NCBI GenBank assembly: GCA_031391405.1
Contig: JANMUI010000779.1
Location: 2,127-66,126, forward strand
Direction: 5' to 3'
Length of the DNA stretch: 64,000 nucleotides
From: Betaproteobacteria bacterium
Lineage (GTDB): Bacteria; Pseudomonadota; Gammaproteobacteria; Burkholderiales; SG8-39
Both the position numbers and the translations under genes were made by a program. Positions 2,212 to 19,090 of the stretch are shown one piece after another. Below the pieces are notes generated by a model. That model was not told the origin of the DNA. It searched no databases and saw only the letters and a program-made list of their open reading frames with translations. Numbering within the stretch: the first letter of the stretch is position 1; every line of letters begins with the position of its first letter.

Positions 2212-2221
2212 AAGCCATTCT

Positions 2222-4039
2222 ATGACTGAGAGCACTACCATGAAGATGACACCTACGGTATCCACCGGAGCGGCGGCAGATGGGCAGCTTGTTGACCGGG
2301 AGGACTTGGTAACTCTCGCGAAGGCTACGGTCATGATGGTCGACGACGATCCGATCATGATCGATGCCGTGGAGGCCTTCCTCGGTGAGGCCGGATTTGA
2401 CGCGTTCATTTCCACGACCGATCCGGAGCAAGCGCTGGCAATGATTCGATCGAACAAGCCGGATGTGGTCTTGCTCGATCTGATGATGCCTATACTCTCC
2501 GGATTCGATATTTTGGAGCGCATGCGCGCGGACGCCGAGTTTCGGTACGTGCCGGTCATCGTATTGACATCGTCGAGCTTCTCGGAGACGAAGACGCGGG
2601 CGCTCGAATTGGGTGCGACGGATTATCTCGCGAAGCCCGTGGACCCAAGCGAGCTGATTCTGCGCCTACGCAATACACTCGCATTCAAGGCCTATCAGGA
2701 CCAGCTCGCCTACTACGATACGCTGACGGGATTGCCCAATCGGAAAATGTTTCTCGAGCGTCTAGATTCTGCGCTCAAGCGGGTCCATGGTTCAGGACGG
2801 TCGTGCGCATTGCTGAACTTCAATATCGACCGGTTTCGGCAGATCAACGATACCCTTGGCCATCGCACCGGCGACGAGCTGCTTCGCGCCGTGGCCCACC
2901 GACTCGAGGAGAGCTTGCGCGCTGGAGATGCCGTGGGCCGTCTTATCGAAGGCGAGTCCCGCGTAAGCATGTCGCGGGTCGGCGGAGACGAATTCTCCTG
3001 CCTGGTCGTTGAATTGAACCAAGCGCCGAACGCTGCAGCCATCGCCCGTCGAACGCTTGCCTTATTCACCGAGCCGTTCCTGATCAACGGTCACGAGCTG
3101 TTCGTGACGGGGAGCATCGGCATTGCGGTCTATCCCAACGACGGGGCAGCGAGCGATCTGTTGATGAAGAACGCCAACGCGGCGATGTCCAACGCGAAGC
3201 GGCAAGGTGGCAACCGATTTGTCTTCTACTCGAATGAAATGAATGCCCGTTCTCTGGAGCGGTTGACGCTCGAGAACCGGCTGCGCAATGCGCTCAGCCG
3301 TGGCGAGCTGATCCTCCACTACCAACCAAAGGTCGACGTCACGAGCGGGCGGATCGTTGGTGCAGAAGCACTCCTGCGTTGGCAGAGCCCGGAGCTTGGC
3401 ATGGTGTCGCCTGGAGTGTTCATTCCGCTCGCGGAAGAGACAGGCCTGATTCTGGCGATCGGGGAATGGGTTCTCTTTTCCGCTTGCCGGCAGAGCAAAG
3501 CACTTCAAGAAGCTGGACACGGGATTGTGCCGATTGCCGTCAATGTATCCAGCGTCCAGTTGCGCGGGAAAGAGTTGTTGGCTTCGATATCGACCGCTCT
3601 CGAGGAAACCCGCCTGGATCCCCGATCCCTGATCCTCGAGCTCACCGAGAGCATGTTGATGGACAACGCGAAAGGAGCAGTCGATGTCATGCGTGCGATC
3701 AAGGCGCTTGGCGTGCAGATCGCGCTCGATGATTTCGGCACAGGCTACTCGTCGCTCGCTTACCTGAAGCAGCTTCCGTTGGACGAGTTGAAGATCGATA
3801 AGTCCTTTATCGATACCGTGACGACCGATTCGCGCGACGCTGCCATCGTGTCGACAGTAGTCGCCTTGGCGCACGGCCTCGGTTTGAAAGCGACAGCGGA
3901 GGGCGTCGAAACCAAGGCTCAGCTTGCGATGCTCGGTCGCCTCAAATGTGACCAATACCAAGGATTCTTGTACAGCAAGGCAGTTCCGGCGGAACGCTTT
4001 GCCGAGATCGCCGCGCAGCAGCTCTGCACGACAGACTAG
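2222..4039 (+). CDS. Response regulator with GGDEF and EAL domains (REC-GGDEF-EAL)
   Basis: ATG at 2222, whereas the ORF opening at 2147 overlaps the upstream gene. REC (VMMVDDD, DVVLLDLMMP, AKP); GGDEF (RVGGDEFSCL); EAL-domain motifs EALLRW, ELTES, DDFGTGYSSL, KIDKSF, EGVET. Confidence 0.92.
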   Translation: MTESTTMKMTPTVSTGAAADGQLVDREDLVTLAKATVMMVDDDPIMIDAVEAFLGEAGFDAFISTTDPEQALAMIRSNKPDVVLLDLMMPILSGFDILERMRADAEFRYVPVIVLTSSSFSETKTRALELGATDYLAKPVDPSELILRLRNTLAFKAYQDQLAYYDTLTGLPNRKMFLERLDSALKRVHGSGRSCALLNFNIDRFRQINDTLGHRTGDELLRAVAHRLEESLRAGDAVGRLIEGESRVSMSRVGGDEFSCLVVELNQAPNAAAIARRTLALFTEPFLINGHELFVTGSIGIAVYPNDGAASDLLMKNANAAMSNAKRQGGNRFVFYSNEMNARSLERLTLENRLRNALSRGELILHYQPKVDVTSGRIVGAEALLRWQSPELGMVSPGVFIPLAEETGLILAIGEWVLFSACRQSKALQEAGHGIVPIAVNVSSVQLRGKELLASISTALEETRLDPRSLILELTESMLMDNAKGAVDVMRAIKALGVQIALDDFGTGYSSLAYLKQLPLDELKIDKSFIDTVTTDSRDAAIVSTVVALAHGLGLKATAEGVETKAQLAMLGRLKCDQYQGFLYSKAVPAERFAEIAAQQLCTTD

Positions 4040-4176
4040 CCTTGGAACCCGTTTCAAGATGTGGCTGTTTCGGTCACTCTGAAACGGCCCCTTCACGCTC
4101 AGCCGGCCCGTTTATCGACCCTAGAACCATGTTATCGACCAGCGGTGAGCTGACGGTGTTGCAGGCGAATCGGTAG

Positions 4177-6363
4177 CTATTTGGAAGTCACTTTGGGTCG
4201 AGGCGTCGTCGGCACGTCGCGCGACGACCACTTCTCCAATATCGTGGCCAAGGCTTTCTTGGTCATCGGTTTGCTCAGGAAATCATCCATGCCGGCACTG
4301 GTGCAGGCGTTTTGGTAGTCGGTGAATGCGTGTGCCGTCAAAGCGATGATTATCTGGCGATACCCGCTGCCTGCCTCATGCTTGCGTATCTCGCGCGTGG
4401 CCTCGAGCCCGTCCATCACCGGCATCTGACCATCCATGAGCACGAGGGCGAAGCGCCGCTGCCGGCATAGGGCAACCGCTTCTTCCCCGTTGCCGACTAC
4501 TGTGACACGCGCACCGAGCGATTCGAGCATCCCCGTGACGACCCGCGCATTCACGGTATTGTCCTCGGCGACCAACACGTCGATCGCGCCCTCTGCGCCC
4601 ACTGCGTCTTCCTGCCCGTCGACCGTAGCGGGAGCGGTGGGTCGCCTATCCGCAGTTGCATCGCTCTTAACCGCACCGCCTGACGTGGATTTCGCAGGCG
4701 CGGCGGTCGAACTGAGAACGCGCTGCGTCGAGACTATCGGGCGCTTGAGGGCATCTTTTCCAACCGGCGCTGCGTTGAACGATGCCTTCGTCCCGATCGG
4801 GAGCCGGACGGCAAACCAGAACGTCGAACCGCGGCCGAGTGCACTTTCCACGGCGAGCTCACCGTCGAAGAGGCTGACGATCCGGCTCGAGATGGCAAGC
4901 CCCAATCCCGTCCCGCTGTATGCACGGGTCATGCTGCCATCGGCTTGAGAGAACGCCTGAAAAATCTCGCGCTGCTTGTCCGCTGGGATGCCGATACCGG
5001 TATCGCGCACCGCGAACCGCAGCGCCGTCATCGAATCACTGCCGCCGGTGCGCGTGACCGAGATCGTAATCGAGCCGTGCTCGGTGAACTTAAGCGCGTT
5101 GCCGACAAGATTGATCAGCACCTGCCTGAGCCTGAGCGGATCATCTTTGACTACCGCGGGTACCTCGGGTCCCACTTGGGCGTTGAGCGCCAGACCGATC
5201 GCACGTGCGCCCTCGGTGAACATGTCGGTGATGCTATGAATAAGGTCTCGGACTGCGAACTCGACCGAGGCGAGCTCGATCCGGCCCGCTTCGATCTTCG
5301 AGAAATCCAGGATGTCATTGATGGCACCAAGCAGGGTCACGCCCGAGGAGTGGATCGTCTCGGCCAACTTGCGCTGGCGCTCCTCGAGGTCGGAGTCGAG
5401 CAGTAGCTCGGCCATGCCGAGCACGCCATTCATCGGGGTGCGGATCTCATGACTCATATTCGCCAGGAACTGCGACTTGAGCTTGTTCGCCGCTTCGGCT
5501 GTTTCCTTCGCGAGCTTGAGCTCCTGCGTGCGCTTCTCGACTTTGGTCTCGAGGTTCGATTGATAGGCAAGCACTTCGGTGCGCGATTCGCGCAGCCGCA
5601 CCGCCATTTGATTGAATGCCGCGGAGAGATCCTGCAACTCGTCGCGCGTCTTCAAGGTTACGATTGCGTCAAGATTGCCTTGGGCGATCGCGCGCGTCGC
5701 CTTGGCGAGCTGATCGATCGGCGCGACCAGCCGTCGCGTGAACCAGACGACGATCACGCTGCCGAGCAAGATCACGAGAAGCGCGCTGACCCCTACGACC
5801 GCGAGGAAGTTCAGGAACTGGTCGCGGATTCGCACCTCGCTTACCGCTACACGCACGTAGCCATCGATCACCAGGGGTGCTGCCATCGCCTCCCGCGCGG
5901 TGGGCGCAGCGTCGTTGGGGGCGCCCGCCTTGGGGCTTCTGACCGGCACGATAATTTCGTGATAGCGCACGCCGCTGGCAGTCACGCCGGCCATGGTCTG
6001 GTGCGAAACTGCACCGGTTGGCCAAGACTTTGGCGCTTGTTGGGACGAAAATCCCTCGCGGGGGCCCGACGCTGTTACTACTTGACCTACTGCGTTGTAA
6101 AGCGCTACGTAGATCACATCGGATTGCTGTGCCGCCGAGCGGACTATGAGGAGTGGCTCCGAGCGCGCCTCGCCCGACAGGTGCGGTCCGCTCAGTTGCG
6201 CCACCATGCGTGCGAGCTTGGTGGCCTGACCGATAAGTTGTGCTCGTCCTTCTTGGAGCTCCGTGTACACCGAGACGGTCCCAACGCCTAGTGCCGCCAG
6301 CAGCGACAGGGCGGCGAACAACAGTCGCAGCTTCAACTCTATGCGCATTGTGCGATTGGCCAT
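4177..6363 (-). CDS. HAMP-containing hybrid sensor histidine kinase with C-terminal REC
   Basis: ATG at 6363 ([11 protein letters not shown]) lies 4 nt after the stop of the upstream gene; extending to 6555 would overlap that gene. Architecture is TM, periplasmic region, TM, then HAMP ([18 protein letters not shown]). H-box [10 protein letters not shown]; HATPase DTGIGI and GTGLGL; REC ([19 protein letters not shown]). Confidence 0.9.
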
Positions 6364-6367
6364 GGCG

Positions 6368-7933
6368 TTACCCCGCACTCGATTCTGCGGCCGCGGTATC
6401 CGCGGCGGTCGCGTGCGTTTCTTGGTCCTGCTCGACCGATTCGCCAGCCCGGCAGACGCGATTGCGCCCCCCACGTTTGGCGCGGTACAGCGCCTGGTCA
6501 GCCGCCTCGATGGCCTGAACAACGCCGGTCGTGTCATCAAGCGTTGCCACACCAAGGCTGGCCGTAACGTGGAATCCAGGTATTTCCCGAATGGCGGGCC
6601 CGCACTGCTCGTCGATCGCTCGCCTTATCCGCTCGGCGACGATGGCTGCCTGCGCGAGGTCGGCGTTCGGCAAGCCGACGCAGAACTCTTCACCCCCATA
6701 GCGGCAGATCACGTCTTTGGTGCGCGATGCCGTCACGAGCTTCTTCGCGACTTCCTGAATTACACGATCACCTGTCGCGTGCCCGTACGTGTCATTGACC
6801 GATTTGAAGCGGTCGATGTCGAGGATCAAGAAGCTGAGCGGCGTCCCGCCTCGCCTCGACTCCACCAGCGCCGCCTCCATCTGCTCGAAGAATGCGCGCC
6901 GGTTGAGACATCCGGTGAGAGAGTCGCGGGTCGCCAGGCGCTCAAGCGCCTCGTTCTTCTGTGCGATCTCGTCGCGCGAAATGGCAAGCTCGACCAGCGT
7001 TTCGCGCAGCCGCTCGTTCGAGCGGTGCAGCTCGGTGACATCGTTCATGGTCACCATGCAACCTCGCACGGAGCCGCCGGGATCTCCAATCGGCGCGCAA
7101 TTGATGATGAGTTTCCTGCTGATACCGGAATCCGTTGCGATCTCGATCTCGTGCCCCATCGTCGGCACTTGTTCGATCATCGTTTGTACCCAAGGATGGC
7201 GGTGTGAATCGTCGGGCAGGTATTCGGCCAACCAGTGGAGCGTCGAGAGGCGCTTGCCGGTCAGATCGAGGCCGTCATTACCGTGCAAGGCGCGAAACGC
7301 ATTGTTCGCAAGTAGGATGCGCCCCCGCGAGTCGAGCAGTACCACCGCCTCGGCCATGACGTCGTAGGCAAGGCGCACGCGCTCCGGAATGACTGCGGAA
7401 GGATCCAGTCGAAGCAACGCGCGCCGCATGTAGAGCCAATAGACGAGTATGCCTCCCAGCGAAACGAACAAGATCGTGATCCAGAGCGGCTCGGTCAGCG
7501 CGCGGCGGAACGCGTTCCGCGGGTCCGGAACGTAGGTCATCTCGAACGTGCCCCAGCGATCCGTTCCGAACGTAAGGGGCACGACCACGTGGGTCAAGGT
7601 GGAGCGGTCATTGCGCGTTTCTGACCAGGCATCCTCATGGTCTCCAGCCTGGGCCACCAACGTCTGATCGGCGCGACGCACCGCAATGGAGCGCACTTCG
7701 TTGCTGCGCTGCCGCAGCGCCTCCAGGGATTGCTCCAGTGCGAGACGGTCGCCGAATTGCATCAGCGTGGCCACTTGCACGGCCATGCCCTCGCTCACCG
7801 ACTTCCGCACCTTCATCATCTGCGATGTGCGGTCGGGCAATACATTGAAGACGGTATCGGCGATGACGATCAGGAAGTTGGTCAGGAAGACCAATCCCAA
7901 GGTGATCTGCAGGGTGGGGCCGATGCGTCTCAC
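6368..7933 (-). CDS. Membrane-bound PAS-GGDEF diguanylate cyclase
   Basis: GTG start at 7933 overlaps the stop of the upstream small ORF (GTGA). Two TM segments flank a ~120-aa periplasmic region, followed by a PAS-like segment. GGEEF is at 6683..6697, with an RxxD I-site (RTKD) five residues upstream. Confidence 0.9.
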
Positions 7934-8301
7934 GCTCGACTCACGGGCCTGTGAATGTCCGCAGCGCGTTCATCGAGCACCATGGCGGCGGCCTGCTCCT
8001 CCAACTCGGCCTGATCGCCGTGCGAGGCATTCGGGATGCGCGCTGGGGGTGGCTCGTCCTCCTCTTCGCGCTCCACGATCGCCAGCAAGTCCACATGCCG
8101 CCAGATCGGCAGGCCCATCACCAGCAGCGAGGTCCAGCCGCTCGAGCGCACCAACCACAACAGCGCACCTGCGACCAGCACTGAGCTGGCCAACCATAGC
8201 GGGTCATTTGTCAATCCTTCGCGCTCGCTCGAATGATTGTGTCGCCAATGGACTCCGACGGTTTGCGCCACCAGGGGCCGCGGCCAGCGGATCGTTGCCA
8301 T
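7930..8301 (-). CDS. Small membrane protein with acidic C-terminal tail (hypothetical)
   Basis: ATG at 8301 overlaps the 3' end of the giant gene by 98 nt; an in-frame TTG at 8214 is an alternative start. Hydrophobic stretch LWLASSVLVAGALLWLV...WTSLLVMGLPIW is followed by EREEEDEPPP...AELEEQ. The stop overlaps the GTG start of the cyclase gene. I see no recognisable family. Confidence 0.5.
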   Translation of the reverse strand: MATIRWPRPLVAQTVGVHWRHNHSSEREGLTNDPLWLASSVLVAGALLWLVRSSGWTSLLVMGLPIWRHVDLLAIVEREEEDEPPPARIPNASHGDQAELEEQAAAMVLDERAADIHRPVSRA

Positions 8302-11251
8302 CTGTTGGGACCGGCGCGCCGATCAACGCGTCACCCGAGTCTCCGCTCGACGCACTGCTCACTGTCGGACCAACCGTTGTGGTTGGGCCGACTACGGCGG
8401 CCAAGGCCGTACTGCTCAGGCTCTCGGCAGTGCCCTGCGCATCGGTGTAACCCACGATCACCCGTATCTGATCGCCCACGTCGGTGGCGGTGAGCAAATA
8501 GATTGACGCAGTGGCCCCGCTCAGGTTGATCCAAGTCACGCCATCGGCGGAGCGCTGCCATTGGAAGCTGACGGCGCTCAGACCGTCAGCGTCGCCAATG
8601 GTGGAAGTGTCCGCGCTGAGCGATTGCGCTTCGGTGGCTGTGCCAATGAGGGCAACCGCACCGGTGGGCGCATCGTTGACGTTGGCGACCGCTGCGGTTT
8701 GGGCACTGGTGAGCGGGCCTTCGGGCGTACCCTGTCCATCGGTGTAGCGCACCTGTACCGAAATCTGCGTGCCGACATCGGCGTCTCCTAACGTGAAGGT
8801 GTTAGCCGTCGCACCCCCAATCGCGATCCCGTTCCTCAACCACTGGTAGCTGAAGACGCCTACGCCATCGACATCCGCGATGCCCGCGGAGGTAGCCGTC
8901 AAGATCTGGTCTTCGCTCACGGTTCCAGTAATCGTTGGCATCCCGGCAGGCGCATCATTGACCGCTGTCACATTGACGGTGAGCGTGTTGGGCGCGGCGT
9001 CGAACGCATTCGACTGATCGCGCACGCTGAAGGTGAAGCTCGCGTAGCCCGCGCCGGTGGCATTCGCGGCCGGCGTGAACACCAGATTGCCCGCGGCGAG
9101 CTGAGCAGTGGTGATCACGTCGCCCGCGTTCACTGCAACGCCTGACAACGTGAGTGAACCCGCGACCGGAACCGAATCGATACGCACCGCTAAGATGCTG
9201 TCGCCCGCGTCCACGTCGGTGAAGCCGAAGGTGGCCGAGGCGAAGGTGTAGGCGGTGTCTTCGTTCGTCGTGACGGTGGCGTTGGTGCCCGCGGGCGCAT
9301 CGTTCACCGCGGTCACATCCACCGTCAACGTGTTCGGCGCGGCGTCATACACACTCGACTGATCGCGCACGCTGAAGGTGAAGCTCGCGTAGCCCGCGCC
9401 GTTGGCATTGGCCGCGGGCGTGAAGACGAGGTTGCCGGCGGCGAGCTGCGCGGCCGTGACCACCTGCCCGGCCGAGACCGCCGCACCGGAGAGCGTGAGC
9501 GAACCCGCGCCCGGAACCGAGTCGATGCGCACCGCCGAGAGGCTGTCACCCGCATCCACGTCGGTGAAGCCGAAGGTGGCGGCAGAGAAGGTGTAGGCGG
9601 TGTCTTCGTTGGTCGTGACGGTGGCGTTGGTGCCGGCGGGCGCGTCGTTCACGGCGGTGCCAGTCATCGCCTTGCTGCCGGTCACGGCCGCCGCGACGCT
9701 GACGCTGGTGGCGATGGTGAAGTTGCCGTTGAAATTGGACGCTGGGTTGAACGTCACGCCGGCCAGCAGGGTGTTGACGTTGGCCAGGGCGCCGCTGGCG
9801 GTCCACACGCCGGTGCCGGCGACATATGTGGAGGTCACCGCACCGGAGGTGGCGGTACTCAGGCTGCCGGCGGCGGTGTTGGACAGGGTCAAGGTCGCCG
9901 TGACGCTGGCGCTGTCGACGTCGCTGATCACGATGTCGGTCAGGTTCAGCGCGGTGTCTTCGGTATAGGTTTGGGCCGCACTCAGATTGGTGGCGCTGGG
10001 CGCGGCGTTGGTAGACTCGATCAGGCGAAACGCCATGTCCTTCGAGCCATCGTCCGTGCCATCGCCGGGGTTGATCTTGGCGCCGGTCGTGTAGGTGCCC
10101 GAATCGTGTACGCCGACATACACCTTGCCACCGTCCGTGCTGCTTTCGATGCGAATGAAATAGTTCTGGTTGTCATTCAGCGTCGCGGTGCTGCTCAGGC
10201 TGATCGTTACCCACGCCTCGGTGGTTCCCAGACTCGAGCTCGCGATCGTTCCGCTGGCGATGATCGCGCCGTTGTAGGTCGAGCGCAACGACACGGTGAT
10301 GTTCTGCGCCGAGGTATCGCTGGCACCGTAGAGCACCAGGCCGATCTTGTCGACGGTGTAAGTCGCCGTCGGGCTGTCGTACCGAACCTTCATGATCTGC
10401 GGCTGACTCGACTTGACCTCGTACGCTTGGTCGCCCATGTTGCCAAACGTGGGCTCGTACGAGTGGATCGTGGTGTCGGCCAACAGGCCAAGCCACTCGT
10501 GTTGTGCCTCAGCGCTCACGGCCACGCCCGTCTCGATGCTTCCCTGCGAAATCTCCAGCTGCCAGTCACCGCCCAGCGACTCGTGCCCGGTCGCATCGAC
10601 ACTTGCCGCGACGTCCGCACCCGTCAGGCGCGCGAGGTGTTCCACGAATGCTTGCCCGGCCGTGCCCTGCGCCACGTCGCAACCATAGATCAGCAGGTCG
10701 GCATCGGCGCTCAGCGCCTCGCGCCAGCTCTGCAGCTCGGTGGCGCGGGCCTCCAGCGCACTCGAGTCGAGCGTCGTGTTTCCGAGTTGCAGCAGCCCGG
10801 GTCGGCCGTGCGAGACGATGTGGATCGCGGCAACATCCTTCTGGTCAGCGAGCGCTTCGTTGATCTGCGCGATCCCATCGCGACTCGCGTCGATGAGAAT
10901 GATCTCTATGGTGCGTTCGCTGCGGGCATTGGCGGTGATATCCGCGACGAGCTGTTCGGCGTTCGGTATGCGTGCATCGACGAACACGATCTCGCGGGAG
11001 CGCTCTTCCTGCAATGAGAAGACTGCGAGCGAGGCGTGCTGAGCATTGACGGTGCTCTCATCGATTTGACGCACCTCACCTTGGAGGGCAGCTTCCGGGG
11101 CAGGCGCGGCGACCGGATTGAGATCTCCCGAATACAGAATGCGCGGCTCGAGCTCCTCGATGGTGGCCGAGGGCGCCTCCTCAGCGTTGGGGCGCCCCAG
11201 GTTCTTCAGCCAGCGGAAAATGCCCATACCATTCTCTCCGCGTCGTGTCAT
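8204..11251 (-). CDS. Giant DUF4347-type N-domain / cadherin-like repeat surface protein (putative adhesin)
   Basis: ATG at 11251 overlaps the stop of the upstream adaptor (ATGA). An alternative ATG at 11227 has GGAGAG upstream. N-terminal LEPRILYSG motif at 11126..11152. DUF4347-like block (EIVFVDARIPN...IHIVSHGRPG...LLIYGCDVAQG...GGDWQLE). A beta-rich middle domain follows, then repeated VNDAP...FTDVD...GYASFTFSVRD modules and two FQW/YQW...GAT...DVG...YTD.QGT modules. No Sec-type signal peptide and no GGxGxD RTX repeats are evident. Confidence 0.85.
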   Translation of the reverse strand: MTRRGENGMGIFRWLKNLGRPNAEEAPSATIEELEPRILYSGDLNPVAAPAPEAALQGEVRQIDESTVNAQHASLAVFSLQEERSREIVFVDARIPNAEQLVADITANARSERTIEIILIDASRDGIAQINEALADQKDVAAIHIVSHGRPGLLQLGNTTLDSSALEARATELQSWREALSADADLLIYGCDVAQGTAGQAFVEHLARLTGADVAASVDATGHESLGGDWQLEISQGSIETGVAVSAEAQHEWLGLLADTTIHSYEPTFGNMGDQAYEVKSSQPQIMKVRYDSPTATYTVDKIGLVLYGASDTSAQNITVSLRSTYNGAIIASGTIASSSLGTTEAWVTISLSSTATLNDNQNYFIRIESSTDGGKVYVGVHDSGTYTTGAKINPGDGTDDGSKDMAFRLIESTNAAPSATNLSAAQTYTEDTALNLTDIVISDVDSASVTATLTLSNTAAGSLSTATSGAVTSTYVAGTGVWTASGALANVNTLLAGVTFNPASNFNGNFTIATSVSVAAAVTGSKAMTGTAVNDAPAGTNATVTTNEDTAYTFSAATFGFTDVDAGDSLSAVRIDSVPGAGSLTLSGAAVSAGQVVTAAQLAAGNLVFTPAANANGAGYASFTFSVRDQSSVYDAAPNTLTVDVTAVNDAPAGTNATVTTNEDTAYTFASATFGFTDVDAGDSILAVRIDSVPVAGSLTLSGVAVNAGDVITTAQLAAGNLVFTPAANATGAGYASFTFSVRDQSNAFDAAPNTLTVNVTAVNDAPAGMPTITGTVSEDQILTATSAGIADVDGVGVFSYQWLRNGIAIGGATANTFTLGDADVGTQISVQVRYTDGQGTPEGPLTSAQTAAVANVNDAPTGAVALIGTATEAQSLSADTSTIGDADGLSAVSFQWQRSADGVTWINLSGATASIYLLTATDVGDQIRVIVGYTDAQGTAESLSSTALAAVVGPTTTVGPTVSSASSGDSGDALIGAPVPTDGNDPLAAAPGGANRRSPLATQSFERARRIDK
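8969..9658 (-). repeat. Two near-identical tandem 345-bp (115-codon) coding repeats inside the giant gene
   Basis: TAVNDAPAGTNATVTTNEDTAYTF... recurs at protein residues 570, 685 and 800. The DNA of 8969..9313 and 9314..9658 aligns with only scattered substitutions. Confidence 0.85.
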
Positions 11252-12309
11252 TTCGCGGCGACGGGTCGCAGCGACGAATGCGCAGGGAGGGCGCCCGACG
11301 TGGCGCGAGCGCCTGATGTTGGGGCGGCTGTCTCGGGCAATTTCAGTCCCAGGTCGACCTTGCATCGCAGCCCGGCGGGCAAGGCGGCGTCGGGATTGGG
11401 CAGCTCGAGACGTACGCGAAACGTACTGCTCGCCGCATCGATGACGCGATCGACGGTCTTGACCGTGGCGGTGCGTTCTTGCCGGTCCAGCAACTCGGGG
11501 ACGACAGTCGCCTTCTGGCCCGCCTTCACCTGCCCGAACGCGGTCGCCGGCACGAGCACGTCGACGCGCAGCGGATTGATGCTGGCGATGCGCATCACCG
11601 GTTTGTCGTCGACGCGCTCTCCCACCGATGCGAAGCGATCCACCACCACACCGGAAATCGGCGCGCGGATGGTGCGCATGTTCAACTGCGCGACCGCGAG
11701 GTCGACTTCCTTTGTCGCCGCCGTCCGCTTCTCCCGGACCTGGTCCGTGCGCCCTTCCGCAACCTGCACCTCGGTGCGCTGTTTGTCCAGATAGGTCTGC
11801 GAGACGAAGCTCTTCTCGTACAACTCGTTGGCACGGCCGAGCTCGCGGTGCGCAAACGCCCGCGAGCTTTGCGCGGCAGCAAGCTCACCGGCCTGCGCGG
11901 CACGCTCACGGGCAAGGGCAAGCGATGCGCGTTCGACGTCGGCATGCAATTGCGCGACGACTTGGCCCTGCTTCACGATGTCCCCGCGTTCGGCCCAAAG
12001 CCGCTCGATCACCCCGACGAGCGCGAGCGCCACGCCCAATAAGGAGGGCGTCAATCCGCGACTGCGTAACATCCGCTGCACTCGCGCTACCGAATCCGAC
12101 CAAGACCGCGCGGACCCCTGGCTGAAACGGGTCCGCGCGTTCGCGAGCGATCGCGACACGGGCCGCGGCAACCGACGGGATTCAGCAGCCGAACAGGCGT
12201 CACCCATTAACCGCGCCAAACCGTGAAGCCGGCCGTGCGAGTCGTCGACTTCCCGCTCGGGATATGCGCTCCAGACGAGTCCGGGAGAAGGGAGTGTCCG
12301 TGCGCTCAT
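11248..12309 (-). CDS. HlyD-family periplasmic adaptor (membrane fusion protein-like)
   Basis: ATG at 12309 overlaps the stop of the upstream gene (ATGA). Arg-rich cytoplasmic N-terminus, one TM (LTPSLLGVALALVGVI), then GDIVKQGQVVAQL, a coiled coil, RTIRAPISGVVVDRFASVGERV and a beta-barrel segment. Confidence 0.8.
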   Translation of the reverse strand: MSARTLPSPGLVWSAYPEREVDDSHGRLHGLARLMGDACSAAESRRLPRPVSRSLANARTRFSQGSARSWSDSVARVQRMLRSRGLTPSLLGVALALVGVIERLWAERGDIVKQGQVVAQLHADVERASLALARERAAQAGELAAAQSSRAFAHRELGRANELYEKSFVSQTYLDKQRTEVQVAEGRTDQVREKRTAATKEVDLAVAQLNMRTIRAPISGVVVDRFASVGERVDDKPVMRIASINPLRVDVLVPATAFGQVKAGQKATVVPELLDRQERTATVKTVDRVIDAASSTFRVRLELPNPDAALPAGLRCKVDLGLKLPETAAPTSGARATSGALPAHSSLRPVAAK

Positions 12310-14468
12310 CGCTCGAAATGCCGCAAGAAGGTGCGTCGCGTGAGCAGCTGCAGCTGTTGGGCAAGCGTTGCTTCACCGTGACGAAAAGTTACGAGCACGC
12401 GCACGCCAATGGGCGCCGCCATGGCATGGGCCAACCGCAGATCGAATTGGAACCAGGCCTCGAGCGCGGTCTTCCCGCTCTGATCGCTGGAATCGGTGGC
12501 GATGCTGCCGCCGCCCGGCTCACCCATCGCCTCGCTCGGGAGCTCACGTGCCGCCTGTGGAATCTCTCGCTCGATGCGAGCGCTATGTGCGGCCCCGATC
12601 TCGTTTGCGAGACGGACATGGATCTCACCAGGCCGCTCGCGCACCAGCGCCACATCTTCGTTGCGCACAAGCACGCGCACGAGCGGGGCGTCCTGGACGA
12701 GGACGTGACCGAACACCTCACCTTGTTCGACGAATCGGCCGGGGGCATCCTGGGCGCGGTCCAGCGCAGCCGCCCCGCTGCGTTCCGCCCGCACGCTCAG
12801 CGCCTCGTTCTTTTGCTGGAGTCGCCGCTGCTCAGAACGCAACTGGTCGATCTTGTCAGGGAGCACTGCGACGCGCATCGGTTCTGTTTCGTATCGCACC
12901 GCGCGCTCGACGGCGTGCTGCTTGAGCGAGGCGCTGACGCGCTCGAGGTCGACCGGAAGCTGATCGTTCGCAAGTTGTGCAATCACCGCGCCCCCGGAAA
13001 CGGGTTCGCCATCGCGCGCCTCAAGTTTTTCGATGAACCCTTCCACGCCCGCGCGTACCGTTGCATCGTCGGGGAGCCAGACGATTCCCGGCGCGTAAGT
13101 CACTTGCGGCAGCGGTACGGCGAAGACCGCGCCGACGACGGCCGTCAAGAGGGCGAGACCGAGGGCGACGGCGCGCCCACGCTGACCGACCAGCTCGCGC
13201 GAATCGACCATATAGACGAGCGCCCGCAATACCGGCCATACGATCAGCAGAACGGCACCAATCGCTGCGACAGAGAGCGCTGTGGCGGCATTGAACTGCG
13301 CGATCACCAGCACGAAGAACGCGAACAGCAGGCACCGATAAACCCACGCGAGCGGCGCATACAGGATGAGCCAAGGGCGCTCGCCGTACTCGAGCGCCGG
13401 TGCGCCGATGCGTCGCACGCCGATGAGGTGCCGCTTCGCCAGATGACGCCAATAGGTGGTGCTGCGTGCCGCGAGATTGGGCAACTCGAAGAGGTCGCAC
13501 AGCACGAAGTAGCCATCGAATCGGAGCAAGGGATTGCCGTTGACCAGCAATGTGGAGACACCCGCTGTGAGCGCCACTGCGAAAGCGAGATCACGAAGCC
13601 ATCCGCCGTCGGCCGCGAGCCACACGACGAGCGCCACAGCGGCGATCACCAGCTCGACCATGATGCCGGCTGCGGCGACTGCCGCGCGCTCCCACTTTTC
13701 GGGGAATGCCGTGGACGCCGAAGCGTCCACATACGGCACCGGCGTCAGGAAGAGCAAGGTCACGCCCATTTCGCGTACATCCCCACCGAACGCTTTGACT
13801 GCGAACGCGTGGCCGAGCTCATGGAGGACCTTGATACAGGGATAGGCGATCCATAACGCGAGGAGCATGCCGGTCGTTGGCAGCTGAGCGGCCGCGAAAG
13901 CGGAGAGCTCGCGTGCGTTGATCATCCAGAGCAGGAGGCCAAGCAGCGCCGTGAGCGTGAACACCACGGCAGCGCCTCGGCTATACATCCAGCGTACATA
14001 GCCCACGGTGTGCGAAATGAACGTGTCCGGATCCCACAGCGGGACACGAAACGCGAGCGGATTGAGGGCGCTCTCCCCACGGCGGCGGCGGGACCGATCG
14101 CCGCGTTTGACGATCGCCGCGGCGTCCGGTGTAACGTCGGCCACGATGAGATTCGCCTCGAACGCCTGGCTGAGGATGCGAATGGCCTCACCTTGCGAAA
14201 TTGCGTGTTCGCCATCGATCTTGACGCGCGCGTTCCATACCTCGTCGACCGTCCGCTGCCCGTCGCAGGAGGCGACCAGACGGTATGCCAGCTGGTTGAA
14301 TCGATGGTGGCGTCCGGAAGCGGGATCGGAGAAGACGTACCACCGTGCGCCGCGAACGATCTGTCGGCTGACCTTGACGCCCGGGCGGACACGCGGACGT
14401 AACTGGGCGACCCGGTACCAGTCCGGAGAGTGGAGGGATGCACGCCTGTTCACGCGAGCGCTCTCCAC
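12306..14468 (-). CDS. Fusion protein: PqqD-like N-domain + M50 (site-2-type) zinc metalloprotease + C-terminal HlyD-like adaptor region
   Basis: GTG at 14468, or GTG at 14453 forming GTGA with the upstream stop. N-terminal segment is RWYVFSDPASGRHHRFNQLAYRLVASCDGQRTVDEVW. HELGH at 13809..13823, plus a second M50 motif GNPLLRFDGY, with multiple TM helices. The C-terminal 260 aa carry a lipoyl-like hairpin, a coiled coil and a barrel. Confidence 0.85.
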   Translation of the reverse strand: MESARVNRRASLHSPDWYRVAQLRPRVRPGVKVSRQIVRGARWYVFSDPASGRHHRFNQLAYRLVASCDGQRTVDEVWNARVKIDGEHAISQGEAIRILSQAFEANLIVADVTPDAAAIVKRGDRSRRRRGESALNPLAFRVPLWDPDTFISHTVGYVRWMYSRGAAVVFTLTALLGLLLWMINARELSAFAAAQLPTTGMLLALWIAYPCIKVLHELGHAFAVKAFGGDVREMGVTLLFLTPVPYVDASASTAFPEKWERAAVAAAGIMVELVIAAVALVVWLAADGGWLRDLAFAVALTAGVSTLLVNGNPLLRFDGYFVLCDLFELPNLAARSTTYWRHLAKRHLIGVRRIGAPALEYGERPWLILYAPLAWVYRCLLFAFFVLVIAQFNAATALSVAAIGAVLLIVWPVLRALVYMVDSRELVGQRGRAVALGLALLTAVVGAVFAVPLPQVTYAPGIVWLPDDATVRAGVEGFIEKLEARDGEPVSGGAVIAQLANDQLPVDLERVSASLKQHAVERAVRYETEPMRVAVLPDKIDQLRSEQRRLQQKNEALSVRAERSGAAALDRAQDAPGRFVEQGEVFGHVLVQDAPLVRVLVRNEDVALVRERPGEIHVRLANEIGAAHSARIEREIPQAARELPSEAMGEPGGGSIATDSSDQSGKTALEAWFQFDLRLAHAMAAPIGVRVLVTFRHGEATLAQQLQLLTRRTFLRHFER

Positions 14469-15949
14469 AGCATGCGGCGCAGCCAGTTGGCGGCACGATG
14501 TGTCCAGATCCCGATGAGCCGCCGCTCCTCGATATCGATCTTCGCCACGCCCTGCAAGCCCGGTCGCAATCCACCAACCTGATCTGCCTCATTGGGTGCG
14601 ACGTGTGCCTCCGCTTCGAAGAAATTCCAGCCGTCGCGCGCCATTGCGATGGGGGCGACGCGGGTGAGTTGCAGGTCGAATGGCCTGGTCGTTTCGGCGG
14701 CGAACAGCACGCGCGCGCGCTGGCCGACGCGAACGGCGCCGACATCCTGCTCATCGACCTCGAGGATCACGCGATATTCATTCGCCGGGGCGACCACCAT
14801 CAGGATTTGCCCGCGCTTGACGGGCGCCCCGATCGATTGGAGCAGATCGCCCTTGATCACGACGCCATCGATGGGCGCCTGGAGGCGAGTGCGTGCGAGG
14901 CGTTGCAGGACCAACCCGAGCTCCGTGCGTGCCTGATCGTGCTTCGCCTTGGCGATCACGATGCTGGCGGCATCGTCCTTGCTCAGCGCTTCGCGATATT
15001 GCTTGTCCAGCTGTGCCATCTCCGCTTCCCACTTGTCCCGCTCGAGCGCAAGGTCACGGTCCTCGAGTGCGGCCAATGCCTGACCGATTTTTACGGCCTG
15101 CCCCGGCCGTACGTGTACGTCGCGGAGGAATCCGTCCACGGGCGCCGCGACGACACGCTCGATTGCACCCTCGATGTGCGCCGGTGCGGTGATGCGAAAG
15201 GTGACCGGCCACATTGCCGCGCCAATCGCCAATGCCAGCATCGCGAGAAAAATAAACTTGCCGGGCGATGATGCGACCCCGTGCAGCCGCTGACCGCGCT
15301 TAGCTAGCAGATCCTCCCAGCGGCGCGCCAACGAATCATCGACCCGATGCTTCAGTGCGAGGACCGGTCCGACGAACAGTGCGACGTCCTGTGCCAGTCG
15401 AACCGCTTCGGCGTTGAATCCCTTTTGACCCTCGAGCAGCACCGCGCCCAGCAGTCGATCGCGATCCGCGATCGGCACGGTGCAGATCGCTGCGCGCGCG
15501 CTGCTCTCCGAGAGGCGCGCATGAGCGAGGGTTACCTTTGGCGAGGACCCCTGCGGCGTTGGATGGACGATGGTCGTCCGCTGATCGAGTGACTCCTCCA
15601 TCGCCGCACCGATGATGCGAACAAGGCTCTGCCGCTCGCGGAAATCCCCGGTATTGGAGATTGCCGCGATCGCGATTCGACCCTTGCGAATAAAGCCAAT
15701 GCTGACGCGATCGCATCCGAGCATCGAGCACAACTCGGTCGTGACGGCGCTTGCCGCCACTTGGAATCGGGCGTGCGAGAGGGCTCGCGCCTGAAGCGCG
15801 AGGACCGTGCCAATCCGCGCCATGCGCTGCTGCGTGCGCGCGGCGGGCGGTGGCTCCCCGGGTGGGCCGGACGCGTGCGGCCGCGGTGAAACGGGCGGCG
15901 CGACGCGCTTGGTCTGGTCGTCGGTGGACGTACTCTCTAGGGCGAGCAA
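14450..15949 (-). CDS. GAF-domain protein fused to HlyD-family adaptor
   Basis: The ORF opens with TTG at 15949; ATG at 15823 (MARIGTVLAL) is an alternative start. GAF-like N-domain (LGCDRVSIGFIRKGR...LLGAVLLEG). TM (FIFLAMLALAIGAAMW), then PVDGFLRDVHVRPGQAVKIGQALAAL, a coiled coil and RLQAPIDGVVIKGDL. Confidence 0.8.
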   Translation of the reverse strand: MLALESTSTDDQTKRVAPPVSPRPHASGPPGEPPPAARTQQRMARIGTVLALQARALSHARFQVAASAVTTELCSMLGCDRVSIGFIRKGRIAIAAISNTGDFRERQSLVRIIGAAMEESLDQRTTIVHPTPQGSSPKVTLAHARLSESSARAAICTVPIADRDRLLGAVLLEGQKGFNAEAVRLAQDVALFVGPVLALKHRVDDSLARRWEDLLAKRGQRLHGVASSPGKFIFLAMLALAIGAAMWPVTFRITAPAHIEGAIERVVAAPVDGFLRDVHVRPGQAVKIGQALAALEDRDLALERDKWEAEMAQLDKQYREALSKDDAASIVIAKAKHDQARTELGLVLQRLARTRLQAPIDGVVIKGDLLQSIGAPVKRGQILMVVAPANEYRVILEVDEQDVGAVRVGQRARVLFAAETTRPFDLQLTRVAPIAMARDGWNFFEAEAHVAPNEADQVGGLRPGLQGVAKIDIEERRLIGIWTHRAANWLRRMLWRALA

Positions 15950-16117
15950 TTTGGGCGTGCGATCTTCCCCGCGATGGCGGGACTCGCCCGTTGGCCTCCC
16001 TATTCGACCCGGGCCGTTGGGCAGGCGGTGTCGCGACTAAGGGTAATCGGGGTGCCCAATTCGGAGCGCGCGCGGTCGATCGCATCCGTCCGTGATCGAA
16101 CTCACGCTCGCACGGCG

Positions 16118-16190
16118 GGCTTCGACAAGCCTGTCCGGAGCCCTTCGACAGGCTCAGGACACGCTTGTCGAAAGGCTCAGCCCGAACGGA
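16118..16190. repeat. REP-like intergenic palindromic element
   Basis: The element reads cttcgacaagcctgtccggagcccttcgacaggctcaggacacgcttgtcgaaaggctcagcccgaacgg. It contains the inverted repeat agcctgtc/gacaggct and repeated ttcgaca(a/g)gc units. It lies in the 349-bp gap upstream of the GAF-HlyD gene. Confidence 0.5.
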
Positions 16191-16298
16191 CTCTCACGGT
16201 CCGATGGGTTGGCTGAGGCAGGTTACTGATCTGGAAGTCGCTGGCCCGCCTCGATTCGTGTCCGATCATCCGGCTGCTGGCGCGGCGCTAGGTCCGGG

Positions 16299-17018
16299 CT
16301 ATGCGAGCCTTCCACTGTCGGGGAGATTGATCTCGTCGAGCCATGCGATGACTTCATCGAGGCTCTTCACGATGTGATCCGGCCGTGCCGATCCGGTCCA
16401 TTCGGCGCCGGAACGATTGACCCAGATTGCTTTGAGTCCGGCGGCTAGCGCACCCTCGACATCGAGCTCGGCATCGTCGCCGATATGCAGAACCTCACCC
16501 GGTTCGCAGCCGAGTCGTTCGCATGCCGCGTGAAACATCCGGATATCGGGTTTGCCGAAACCGAGCTCTGCCGCGGACAACGCGCCGACGAAATGCCGGC
16601 CAAGACCCGTGCGATGAATATCCGCGGTCCCGTTCGATAGCGCGAAGATCGGATACCGCGCACCGAGTGCAAGGAGAGCGGGCATCGCATCGTCGAACAA
16701 CTCGACCTCTTGTCGCGCGGCATCGAACACTGCATACGCTTGATGCGCTTTGGCCGGGTCATCGCCCACCGAAGTCAGTGCATGGGCAATGGCGGTGCGT
16801 CGAACATGCCCGATGTCGCTGCGACGATGGGGTGCCACTTGCGCGATGATCTGGTCGCGCAGGATTCGCATCGTAGCCGGTGGAAAACGCTCGGCAACCG
16901 CCGGTGCATGCGCGAGCATCCACGCCGTTAGTGCGGCTTCGGCTTTCGCGATGACCGGGCCGACCGGCCACAGCGTTTCGTCGAGATCAATGGTGATGGC
17001 GCGAAGGGTGGCGGTCAT
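16299..17018 (-). CDS. HAD-superfamily hydrolase
   Basis: ATG at 17018 overlaps the upstream stop (ATGA). Motif I is ITIDLDETLW; the later motif is HIGDDAELDVEGA. Confidence 0.8.
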   Translation of the reverse strand: MTATLRAITIDLDETLWPVGPVIAKAEAALTAWMLAHAPAVAERFPPATMRILRDQIIAQVAPHRRSDIGHVRRTAIAHALTSVGDDPAKAHQAYAVFDAARQEVELFDDAMPALLALGARYPIFALSNGTADIHRTGLGRHFVGALSAAELGFGKPDIRMFHAACERLGCEPGEVLHIGDDAELDVEGALAAGLKAIWVNRSGAEWTGSARPDHIVKSLDEVIAWLDEINLPDSGRLA

Positions 17019-17845
17019 GAACGTATTGTCGCAGGGTTGGACGGAACGGTAGCGATCCATCCCTCGATCGGATCGACATCCGGCGGGAAGCCGAAATGGT
17101 CGTGCCTGCGTGCGAGCGACCAGGCGGCCTGCAATGCCGCAAGCACGGCATCGAGGCGATCACCGCTCGGGTCGTGGATGAGCGTGGCGAGCAGGTTGCA
17201 GTCGGCCGCCATCCGAATGCCGAATGGTCCACCGTTATTGACCAGTTCCGAAACCATGCTCGCGCGCGCTTGGCGACGGGCAGGGGTCTGCCTGGCCCGC
17301 TCGTCCGACTTGTACGACTCGCGCGTCATGGCGCGCGCCGAAAATCCCGGATAGGCTTCGATCACGATTCGGTCGGGGTCGCCGTCGTGCACGCCGGGAA
17401 TCGAGACGCCGGCCGCGAGCAATCGAGGCGCCGCCTCCAGAAACATGAGCCCGACGGGCGGATTGACCAGCTTGAGCGGGCTATGCGAGCCGGCGGGATG
17501 ATCGGTTGCACGGTGCGCATAGCGCCGGCCGATCGGGCGACTTTCGCGATACCGGTCGAGCGCCGCGCGAAAGCCGGACCGGCCAAGCGATGCGCAGTGA
17601 CGCACCAGCGCCGGCCACTCGCCTGGCCAATCGAGATCGCGCACCGCTTCGCGCGGTAAGCCGAACGGTGCGTCGATGCCCGCAATCCACGGACCCGGCC
17701 GCGCGAGAATCTGTTCGAATGCCGCGAAGTCATCGGCGAGCTCGATCACATCGAGGGCGAATGAGTTGCCTTGCAGGTGACCCACGGCAATCGTGATGGG
17801 CTTAGTGCGCCGGGGCGCGGAGGTGAAATCCACGCCGAGCACCAT
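17015..17845 (-). CDS. DUF429-like protein (predicted RNase H-fold)
   Basis: ATG at 17845 (MVLGVDFTSAP); the ORF opens at a TTG at 17863. The family assignment is from overall pattern recall and has not been searched. Confidence 0.6.
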   Translation of the reverse strand: MVLGVDFTSAPRRTKPITIAVGHLQGNSFALDVIELADDFAAFEQILARPGPWIAGIDAPFGLPREAVRDLDWPGEWPALVRHCASLGRSGFRAALDRYRESRPIGRRYAHRATDHPAGSHSPLKLVNPPVGLMFLEAAPRLLAAGVSIPGVHDGDPDRIVIEAYPGFSARAMTRESYKSDERARQTPARRQARASMVSELVNNGGPFGIRMAADCNLLATLIHDPSGDRLDAVLAALQAAWSLARRHDHFGFPPDVDPIEGWIATVPSNPATIRS

Positions 17846-17905
17846 GAATGGCTGGTGCGGCAATGCCGGATACCGATCGAGGGCGAACCGAATCGGTTGC
17901 GCGAA

Positions 17906-18877
17906 TCAATCGATTTGGGCGCCGGACTCTTTAACGATCTTCGCCCATTTCGGCAATTCGTCTTTGACGAGCGCGGCGAACGCCTCTGGTGTATTGCTCA
18001 GCACTTCGGCGCCTTGCTGCGCGAGTTTGTCTTGGAGGTCACTCGCATTGAGCGCTTTGATCGTCTCGGCGTGAATGCGGGTGATGAGCGCCTTGGGTGT
18101 TCCGGCGGGAGCGAAGATGCCGTACCACGGCGTCGTCCCGAAGCCCGGTAGCGTCTCGCTCATCGCCGGTGCATCGGGCAGGAATCGGGTGCGCTTTTCA
18201 TTGGCCACGCCGATCAAGACAAGCTTGCCTGCCTTCACGAAAGAGATCACCGACGGCATACTTTGAAACGCGATCGGCACGCGGCCTGCCATCACGTCAG
18301 TGGCCGAGGCGGAGGCGCCCTTGTAAGGAATGTGCAGGAGATTGATGCCCGCCTGCGTCTTCAACATTTCCCCGAGCAGATGGTTCGGCGTGCCGTTGCC
18401 GGCAGACGCATAGGCAATCTCGCCCGGTTTGGCTTTCGCGAGTGCGATCAGCTCCTTCAATGTCTTGGCAGGAAACGACGGGTTGGCCACCAGTAAATAC
18501 GCGGACGTGGCGACCGGCGTGATGGCCTCGAAGTCCTTCACCGGATCGAAGCCCGGATTCTTGTAGAGCGCCGGGTTCACGGTGTGCGCACTGTTCACGG
18601 TGAGGAGCAGCGTGTAACCATCACGCGGCGCCCGCGCGACCAGCGCCGTACCGATATTGCCGCCCGCGCCGGGTCGATTCTCGATGACGAATTGCTGGCC
18701 GAGATTCTCGGTGAGCTTCTGCGCGATGATTCGCGCGATCGCATCATTGGCGCCACCCGGTGCCTGCGGAACAACGACGGTGACTGGTTTGATCGGGTAC
18801 TTGTCATCGGCGAGGGAGGGTGCGGCGAGCGACCCGAGCAGTGATGCACACAGAACGATTCGAAGCGAAATTCGCAT
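17906..18877 (-). CDS. Bug-family (TctC-like) tripartite tricarboxylate transporter substrate-binding protein
   Basis: ATG at 18877 gives the signal peptide MRISLRIVLCASLLGSLAAPSLA. Hallmark sequence VVPQAPGGANDAIARIIAQKLTENLGQQFVIENRPGAGGNIG. Confidence 0.9.
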   Translation of the reverse strand: MRISLRIVLCASLLGSLAAPSLADDKYPIKPVTVVVPQAPGGANDAIARIIAQKLTENLGQQFVIENRPGAGGNIGTALVARAPRDGYTLLLTVNSAHTVNPALYKNPGFDPVKDFEAITPVATSAYLLVANPSFPAKTLKELIALAKAKPGEIAYASAGNGTPNHLLGEMLKTQAGINLLHIPYKGASASATDVMAGRVPIAFQSMPSVISFVKAGKLVLIGVANEKRTRFLPDAPAMSETLPGFGTTPWYGIFAPAGTPKALITRIHAETIKALNASDLQDKLAQQGAEVLSNTPEAFAALVKDELPKWAKIVKESGAQID

Positions 18878-18920
18878 GCTGGTTATTTCCAAAAATTGTG
18901 AAGAGTAGAGATGGAACCAC

Positions 18921-19090
18921 AGAGGACGCAGTGGACGCAGGGGAAAAACGGGGAAAACGGTGAAGGGTGAAGGGTGAAGGGTGGAGGGAATTGGCGTTTC
19001 CCGTTTCTCCTTTCCCGTTTCCCTGCTTTCCGCTTCCGGTTTCTCGTTTCCCTGCTTTCCGCTTTCCGTTTCCCGTTCCGCCTTTCCTCT
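18921..19090. repeat. Strand-asymmetric low-complexity repeat block (purine-rich arm then pyrimidine-rich arm)
   Basis: ggacgcag occurs twice. gggaaaa(a)cg occurs twice. ggtgaag occurs three times plus ggtggag (18959..18986). The 19-nt cgtttccctgctttccgct occurs twice (19016..19034 and 19045..19063). The block is intergenic between the UbiD-family gene and the Bug-family gene. Confidence 0.75.

Follow-up and report, generated by a model that had tools for sequence, protein, structure and literature searches.

Kamneva, Poudel & Ward (2015, PLoS One, PMC4452313) gave a computational description of a module of co-directional genes for a GAF-HlyD protein, an M50-HlyD protein, a secondary SecA_DEAD protein and an HlyD protein, present in Proteobacteria and in other phyla. 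Its role was stated to be "completely unknown"; the authors proposed a type-I-like system in which SecA_DEAD serves as ATPase and the M50 protein forms the membrane component. OEP genes were reported in some module loci, and an internal terminator was inferred after the GAF gene in M. extorquens. The paper mentions no cargo, RRE-like domain, DUF4347, GGDEF or cyclic di-GMP (c-di-GMP) genes. We found no follow-up work on the module, which in the literature searched appeared only in that 2015 comparative-genomics paper, and mentions tying LEPR-XLL or DUF4347 to it were incidental. Here we analyse a related locus in a stretch of 64,000 nucleotides from a Betaproteobacteria bacterium (contig JANMUI010000779.1); "the window" refers to this whole stretch. 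Seven open reading frames (ORFs), designated g1 to g7, lie on its minus strand between positions 4177 and 15949. Sequence comparison indicates that the string is probably a decaying copy of a conserved eight-gene adhesin-secretion locus, with its motor gene lost and its cargo gene broken; we put the probability of this reading at about 0.75.

A scan of species-representative genomes yielded 80 module loci, whose gene order was mapped by tblastn. Among the 65 loci whose sequence extends far enough past the M50 gene to judge, 64 showed the order GAF-HlyD, M50-HlyD, SecA-like, and a third adaptor follows in most surveyed loci. In the single exception (L077), positions 1928-5023 hold an M50 gene followed by adaptor-like sequence without a long ORF, and no SecA-like gene; possibly L077 is a further copy in decay, or else it is poorly assembled. 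As the reference for the presumed intact order we took one JGI contig (loci L091 and L087), which carries in succession genes for a GAF-HlyD protein, an M50-HlyD protein (probably with an RRE-like domain, see below), a SecA-like protein, a very large adhesin (a cargo of 6,313 aa), a third HlyD adaptor, a sensor-PAS-GGDEF cyclase, a GGDEF-EAL protein and a HAMP hybrid kinase. The reading frames of g1, g2, g6 and g7 are intact in the window. The lesions lie between them, in g3 and across g4 and g5.

The closest relative with genomic context was L001, a Burkholderiales metagenome-assembled genome (MAG) whose g2 orthologue is 84% identical and whose upstream neighbors (DUF429 and HAD hydrolase genes) match those of the window. 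Between the M50 gene and the third adaptor, L001 has a gene for a 656-aa SecA-like ATPase, as do L002 and L003; the L001 protein matched SecA/SecA2 families and SecA structures, and no specific NCBIfam family. In blastn, L001 8352-12444 aligned with window 16084-12010, and L001 14297-15706 with window 12019-10610. Because these two collinear blocks abut in the window, ~1.85 kb is missing there. The breakpoints have GTCGG(G/A)GTG in common, a 9-bp microhomology that stands as GTCGGGGTG at the deletion junction (12010..12018, minus strand) and occurs at each of the two breakpoints in the intact relative. On one side of the junction, 12019..12309 retains the first ~99 codons of the SecA-like gene and ends before the motor domains. 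On the other side, 11248..12009 encodes the third HlyD adaptor (HlyD3), from which the first ~42 codons, including the signal peptide, are gone.

The single ORF g3 (11248..12309, minus strand) runs through both parts. By blastp, its residues 4-100 were 70% identical to residues 2-98 of the L001 SecA-like protein, and its residues 98-350 were 86% identical to residues 43-295 of L001 HlyD3; Pfam recognized HlyD_D23 (7e-18) and HlyD_3. By these alignments, g3 is an in-frame chimera from which the ATPase motor and the HlyD3 signal peptide have been deleted. ATG 12309 was given as a gene start in the first-pass annotation, which was made from the letters of the stretch; because the g3 N-terminus is SecA-like, the ATGA at this position is the start of the SecA remnant and not of the adaptor. 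No second SecA-like copy was found in the 64-kb window. The SecA deletion junction recurs unchanged in L004, a Logan contig of run SRR20217208 that is 99.86% identical to the window over 7.8 kb. This contig differs by 9 single-nucleotide polymorphisms (SNPs) and by a 2-nt deletion at 14719-14720 that frameshifts g1. Since L004 shares the junction yet differs elsewhere, the deletion is seen in two haplotypes. The L004 haplotype has decayed further, and its 2-nt g1 deletion is consistent with ongoing decay of the locus.

The second lesion splits the cargo gene into g4 (8204..11251, minus strand), the adhesin body, and g5 (7930..8214, frame open to 8301, minus strand), the C-terminal anchor domain. 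The likelier cargo start is ATG 11227, which has a Shine-Dalgarno sequence GGAGAG at 11234-11239, 6 nt upstream, and gives the N-terminus MGIFRWLKNLGR..., like the N-termini of homologues. A basic leader with a LEPR-XLL motif, IEELEPRILYSGD, follows at ~11099-11161 (minus strand) and is conserved in relatives; g4 residues 31-51 matched NCBIfam NF012209 (LEPR-8K) at 22.9 bits (cut-off 17). Next comes DUF4347 (PF14252; ~10481-10990, minus strand; Pfam 1.4e-58), where g4 residues 88-257 span the whole model (positions 1-164 of 164) and score 197.7 bits (cut-off 24.6). The remainder of g4 has cadherin-like/Ig repeats (Cadherin_4/5 and Big_9 in Pfam), and no HemolysinCabind (RTX) match was obtained in any of the seven ORFs. 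The third adaptor is likewise followed, in ~30 loci of Betaproteobacteria, by a gene that begins with a basic leader of ~30 residues, the motif VVEE[CLIV]EPRILYSADLNP, a linker and DUF4347, in that order. In loci without DUF4347, LEPR-like motifs were observed near the module as well (L038, L042, L043, L060 and L067).

As a separate ORF, g5 encodes 94 aa from TTG 8214, with a hydrophobic hairpin LWLASSVLVAGALLWLVRSSG...LPIWRHVDLL and an acidic tail, and it matched no family in Pfam or NCBIfam. An exhaustive HMMER search with g5 gave 160 matches. WRHxDLL was present in 132 of the 150 best, its median distance to the C-terminus being 48 residues, and nine matches of 2,386-5,045 aa also bear the N-terminal LEPR-XLL leader and DUF4347. 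Because the domain is C-terminal in nearly all 160 homologues, including these LEPR-XLL/DUF4347 giants, g5 is the C-terminal domain of the cargo. It is in frame with the cargo in L029, L086, L087, L089 and L090; L029, L089 and L090 have an unbroken cargo ORF. Among these loci, L089 and L090 are the two closest relatives, with adjoining cyclases that are 85% and 68% identical to g6. When the L089 cargo was searched by tblastn, its residues 1-73 aligned in the g4 frame as far as 8366 and its residues 217-314 in the g5 frame from 8244. The zone between (8245..8365, minus strand) has 121 nt, as against an in-frame linker of 429 nt in L089, and the net change in length is not a multiple of three. 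On this comparison, one or more indels in the linker have split the cargo body from its membrane anchor. The 98-nt overlap described in the first-pass annotation as lying between two genes is a frameshift scar inside a single cargo gene, and the "small membrane protein" counted there as a component in its own right is the anchor domain of that cargo. Nor is the surface protein a giant in the window: the cargo has ~1,000 aa here and 1,400-6,300 aa in relatives.

In L088, a g5-like ORF of 92 aa stands by itself immediately ahead of the cyclase, so the two-piece arrangement is not unique to the window, and 28 of the 150 best g5 matches are under 140 aa. In L086 (1-9983), a long-read MAG, the cargo was called as five consecutive cadherin-like ORFs (1970+, 222, 277, 232 and 506 aa), which could reflect repeated frameshifts or sequencing indels. 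Cargo genes of the LEPR-XLL/DUF4347 family seem prone to fragmentation in assemblies.

It is improbable that the two lesions arose in assembly or belong to a minority of the population and that the dominant genome has eight intact genes. The source is evidently a metagenome-type assembly, repetitive adhesin genes mis-assemble easily, and the only matching public contigs, L004 and L085, both come from run SRR20217208. However, the SecA junction lies in unique sequence that has the 9-bp microhomology and no repeat, the fusion is in frame with collinear flanks, and the same junction is found in the contig with 9 SNPs and the 2-nt indel, i.e., in two haplotypes. For the cargo, the Logan contig L085 is identical to the window across the cargo region, including 8245-8365.

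The junctions of the string were read on the minus strand. The g1 stop is TGA 14452..14450, and GTG 14468 and GTG 14453 are both in the g2 frame; GTG 14453, with a GTGA overlap, is favored because most of the homologues listed have 712-718 aa, with a mode of 714-715. Stop 12306 of g2 faces ATG 12309 (ATGA), stop 11248 of g3 faces ATG 11251 (ATGA), and stop 8204 of g4 lies 98 nt into the frame opened by ATG 8301. Stop 7930 of g5 faces GTG 7933 (GTGA), and stop 6368 of g6 is separated by 4 nt from ATG 6363. Neighboring ORFs overlap or are separated by gaps of ≤21 nt. Tight junctions recur in orthologous loci that are 40-85% identical (L001, L002, L003, L087/L091, L089 and L090), and in the sense of this recurrence they exceed chance. 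A consensus scan of 3900..16500 gave four terminator-like matches, all on the plus strand, against 7.9 expected from shuffled sequence, and none on the minus strand; no sigma-70-like consensus site was found on the minus strand in the same interval. Past the 3′ end of g7, the fold is no better than that of shuffled sequence (z = 0.33).

The first-pass annotation had read the string as seven intact genes of one functional operon, in which a local cyclase controls the machine that processes a giant surface protein. All of its junction coordinates were correct, as were the absence of an internal terminator-like site and the statement that 15950..16298 is the sole long non-coding stretch. The seven ORFs are open, the active-site GGEEF and the RxxD of g6 are intact, and module and signalling genes co-occur in relatives. 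We nevertheless consider this reading very improbable. The count of seven separate genes was wrong, since two of the "genes" are lesion products: g3 is a SecA'-'HlyD chimera without ATPase and signal peptide, and a frameshift has divided a single gene into g4 and g5. Moreover, a SecA-like gene follows the M50 gene in nearly every assessable locus of the family, and the cargo is not giant. The processing machine named there is not intact: it has a deleted SecA-like ATPase, a third adaptor without signal peptide and a cargo cut from its anchor. With ATPase, adaptor export signal and cargo anchor lost, a working machine in the window is unlikely; most likely the machine is non-functional. The part of the locus that remains active is probably the signalling pair only. 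Two inactivating lesions are concealed by the neat overlaps, so automatic annotation would give wrong names to the chimera and to the two halves of the cargo gene.

The decaying-copy reading leaves g2 (12306..14453, or to 14468; minus strand) as an open frame for an intramembrane, site-2-protease-like M50 metalloprotease with a C-terminal HlyD-type adaptor domain (715 aa). Its metalloprotease motifs HExxH (H211, E212, H215) and NxxPxxxxDG (N305-G314) are invariant columns in homologues, and Pfam assigned Peptidase_M50 (3.5e-8), HlyD_3 and HlyD_D23. More than 3,800 M50-HlyD homologues were scored. The best NCBIfam match was daptide_HExxH (NF041824; residues 25-410, E = 3e-45), at 154.9 bits against a cut-off of 300, and the YydH/LiaK model NF058609 scored 36.6 bits against a cut-off of 225. 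An AlphaFold2 (AF2) model (mean predicted local distance difference test score, pLDDT, 85) has three parts: an N-terminal beta-beta-beta-alpha-alpha-alpha unit (residues 27-99; window ~14160-14375), a helical membrane core (residues 142-444) bearing HExxH and NxxPxxxxDG, and a C-terminal domain that superposes on MexA, MacA and AcrA in Foldseek. Adaptor matches dominated the whole-protein Foldseek search, which returned nothing on the RRE or M50 parts. The topology of the N-terminal unit is one that we take to be that of PqqD/RRE (RiPP recognition element). Pfam PqqD was recognized in 3 of 17 g2 homologues (best E = 1e-4), and a profile of the N-terminal domain matched the PqqD structure 3g2b over nearly its full length at E = 0.08. 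From model and profile, g2 probably carries a cytoplasmic PqqD/RRE-like domain.

The AF2 model of the cargo N-terminus had a pLDDT of 79, rising to >90 in the DUF4347 core. The best Foldseek matches of DUF4347 were effector complex 9qpe of a type VI secretion system (T6SS), legumain and caspases (E = 2e-5 to 1e-3). Across 71 DUF4347 sequences, His148 and Gly190-Cys191 are invariant and Gly149 is ≥90% conserved. This pattern on the predicted fold points to a caspase-like catalytic pair, and the model suggests that DUF4347 is a clan-CD-like protease module common to adhesins and T6SS effectors.

Upstream of the string, 15950..16298 is non-coding and is the presumed promoter/5′ region on the minus strand; blastn and alignment showed that ~15950-16084 is conserved with L001. 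A strong hairpin with a 22-bp stem lies at 16121-16172 (minus strand), between the HAD-hydrolase gene and g1. Inverted-repeat and fold analysis gave -59.5 kcal/mol over 116 nt (z = -4.67), with no U-tract after it. L001 lacks this hairpin, and the window contains no further copy of it; it may serve the upstream gene as a terminator or be a small inserted element. A c-di-GMP riboswitch or other RNA element upstream of g1 was dropped as a candidate, since Rfam, including the c-di-GMP riboswitch, gave no match in the whole window at gathering thresholds and none in 15700-16400 at E≤1.

The first gene, g1 (14450..15949, minus strand), encodes a GAF protein with an HlyD-type periplasmic adaptor (Pfam: GAF 1e-8, HlyD_3 2.6e-16, HlyD_D23, Biotin_lipoyl_2 3e-7) and is 89% identical to its L001 orthologue. 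The search for solved structural relatives of its GAF domain, as a hint to a ligand, returned only adaptor-domain matches. Candidate starts are TTG 15949 and ATG 15823. The 42-codon N-terminal extension between them (15823-15949; L001 8523-8650) is open in both genomes, with several synonymous differences; an 18-nt indel takes away the ATG present in L001 and leaves the window extension with TTG 15949 only.

At the other end of the string, g6 (6368..7933, minus strand) encodes a diguanylate cyclase with a membrane sensor, PAS and GGDEF (Pfam 1.4e-46), in which the GGEEF active site and the RxxD inhibitory site are intact; by its motifs, GG(D/E)EF with RxxD five residues upstream, it is predicted to be an active cyclase. 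The last ORF, g7 (4177..6363, minus strand), encodes a hybrid histidine kinase with HAMP, HisKA, HATPase and receiver domains and, by Pfam, no Hpt domain. In each of the 11 further loci that we examined (among them L029, L030, L039, L044, L064 and L086-L090), an orthologue of g6 with the same N-terminal sensor domain adjoins the module or its cargo. The orthologue directly follows the third adaptor in L029, L030, L039, L044 and L064. A GGDEF-EAL(-DUF427) gene comes after the cyclase in L029 and L030, and a second GGDEF-like match is found there in L039 and L064. The module-linked GGDEF-EAL proteins with a C-terminal DUF427 (NTP_transf_9), at L029 14147-16204 and L030 16642-18636, are an unusual fusion. 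L032 and L086 share a contig, with L086 directly downstream, and the two together give a module, DUF4347 cargo, cyclase, two small ORFs and GGDEF-EAL. The kinase of L087, a distant full locus, is a full-length g7 orthologue (40% identity over 705 aa). In L089 and L090, cargo, cyclase and next gene are spaced as in the window, the next gene being a histidine kinase-like ORF. In a neighbor-joining tree of the M50 proteins, five of these cyclase-bearing loci and the window fall at ≥4 separate positions.

These observations bear on the possibility that the cyclase and the kinase are ordinary neighbors without functional tie, their spacing reflecting genome compaction. Such an explanation would fit our survey of ±10 kb around the modules, where most loci show neither a GGDEF nor a kinase gene. 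GGDEF and kinase genes are numerous in Betaproteobacteria, and no c-di-GMP-binding domain was recognized in the module proteins with Pfam or NCBIfam. However, the survey undercounts the link, because cargo genes of 6-19 kb push the cyclase past the 10-kb flank (e.g., L032/L086). The recurrence of g6 orthologues with their own sensor domain in 11 other loci at several positions of the M50 tree, and the presence of both a g7 orthologue and a GGDEF-EAL gene after the cyclase in L087, make mere adjacency most unlikely. From gene neighborhood, we conclude that the signalling genes are recurrent accessories of the secretion system. The earlier proposal that adhesin, adaptor/protease machine and c-di-GMP genes belong together is supported at the family level, with a cyclase beside module or cargo in these loci and the full set on the L091 and L087 contig, but not for the window, whose machine is not intact.

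Two plus-strand genes converge on g7: 34-2211 encodes a PAS-HisKA-HATPase-receiver-Hpt hybrid kinase, and 2147-4039 a receiver-GGDEF-EAL protein. Since g7 has no Hpt domain, they could complete a phosphorelay to a c-di-GMP phosphodiesterase, and g6 and g7 may still act in signalling, perhaps with these neighbors. The receiver-GGDEF-EAL gene was rejected as an orthologue of the module-linked GGDEF-EAL genes, the likeness being confined to the catalytic domains and the N-termini being different.

In the intact system, the PqqD-like domain of the M50 protein would bind the basic leader and EExEPRILYSAD motif of the cargo in the cytoplasm. Energy for export would come from the SecA paralogue, and three adaptor-type proteins would make the connection to an outer-membrane channel whose gene lies elsewhere. 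Either the leader or the C-terminal transmembrane hairpin would be cut by the M50 protease, and cyclase, phosphodiesterase and kinase would set the c-di-GMP level, and with it whether the adhesin is exported, retained or released.

Several points weigh against the decaying-copy reading or against this mechanism. No gene for a TolC-family outer-membrane channel was found in the cluster; beyond it, the window was covered by sampling. By its spacing, the string is a putative operon. Given stand-alone g5-like ORFs such as that of L088, a two-piece cargo might still work, and housekeeping SecA might take the place of the lost paralogue. The assemblies that show the two lesions may all come from a single sample (SRR20217208), which makes heterogeneity within the population possible. 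The scores behind the RRE assignment of g2 are weak (E = 0.08 to 1e-4) and are joined to a predicted topology, the proposed mechanistic steps are without experimental precedent in the SecA/M50-HlyD family, and the module proteins show none of the c-di-GMP-binding domains sought above.

The locus as a whole is chromosomal, without sign of a mobile element, because housekeeping genes lie in the same window: typA/bipA at 23676-25886, rpoD at 39857-42214 and dnaE at 60113-63538. Over the profiled 22 kb (1..22000), GC content stays within 58-67% and does not shift abruptly where the cluster begins or ends.

Compared with the module of Kamneva et al., the window has the GAF+HlyD protein (g1) and the M50-like+HlyD protein (g2) in the same order; in contrast, its SecA_DEAD gene is reduced to ~99 codons. 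The further adaptor retains HlyD domains, and its first ~42 residues are replaced by a SecA-like N-terminus. The terminator of M. extorquens after the GAF gene has no counterpart in the window. Because its SecA_DEAD gene has been lost, the locus descends from this family and is not a complete member of it. To a widespread module the present analysis adds an exported cargo with a LEPR-XLL leader, DUF4347 and a WRHxDLL anchor, a probable recognition mechanism through a likely PqqD-like domain fused to the protease, a fold for DUF4347 that is probably that of a protease, and a recurrent set of c-di-GMP genes. As far as we found, a variant with cargo and dedicated c-di-GMP genes is undescribed in the literature.

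The classical type I secretion system (T1SS; HlyB/HlyD/TolC) resembles the family in its HlyD-type adaptors and its large, repetitive cadherin-/Ig-like surface cargo. However, no ABC domain is encoded in the seven window ORFs or in the clusters of intact relatives. The intact family has instead a SecA-paralogue ATPase, an M50-type protease as membrane component and three adaptor-type proteins, and its cargo begins with a conserved LEPR-XLL leader and bears, in place of an RTX-type C-terminal signal, a hydrophobic hairpin at the C-terminus. The HExxH leader peptidases of ribosomally synthesized and post-translationally modified peptides (RiPPs; NF041824, NF058609) resemble g2 in architecture only, with a PqqD-like domain and an HExxH membrane core. 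This architecture suggests recognition of a leader peptide followed by cleavage. In contrast to these peptidases, g2 scores far below the cut-offs, adds an HlyD domain and is partnered with a SecA paralogue, and its putative substrate has 1,000-6,000 residues and is not a short peptide. The predicted DUF4347 fold and its invariant His (SHG) and Cys (YGC) are shared with clan CD peptidases (caspases, legumain) and with Hcp3-Tce1 of P. aeruginosa (9qpe). However, identity is 9-19% and TM-scores are 0.3-0.4, DUF4347 stands here behind a secretion leader in a giant adhesin, and its catalysis is a prediction.

The Lap system of Pseudomonas comprises the adhesin LapA, the T1SS LapBCE, the protease LapG and the c-di-GMP receptor LapD. 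As in our family, there is a genetic link between a giant adhesin, the machine that exports it, a protease dedicated to it and c-di-GMP signalling, and a Lap-like logic, in which retention of the adhesin is controlled against its release, is plausible by analogy. The parts are different: the cluster has no LapD-type receptor, LapG (C93) protease or ABC exporter, its protease is an intramembrane metalloprotease, and the NCBIfam LapD match to g6 is generic GGDEF similarity (54 bits against a cut-off of 1020). We tentatively propose, as a possibility that we hold to be less likely than not, that the intact family is a distinct c-di-GMP-governed pathway of giant-adhesin display, with export by a SecA paralogue, an RRE-bearing site-2-type protease, three adaptors, caspase-like self-processing and a cyclase/phosphodiesterase/kinase set that decides on retention or release; the window would then be a natural knockout of it. 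If this is true, the family would represent a new route of adhesin display and, besides Lap, a second and mechanistically unrelated giant adhesin under c-di-GMP control.

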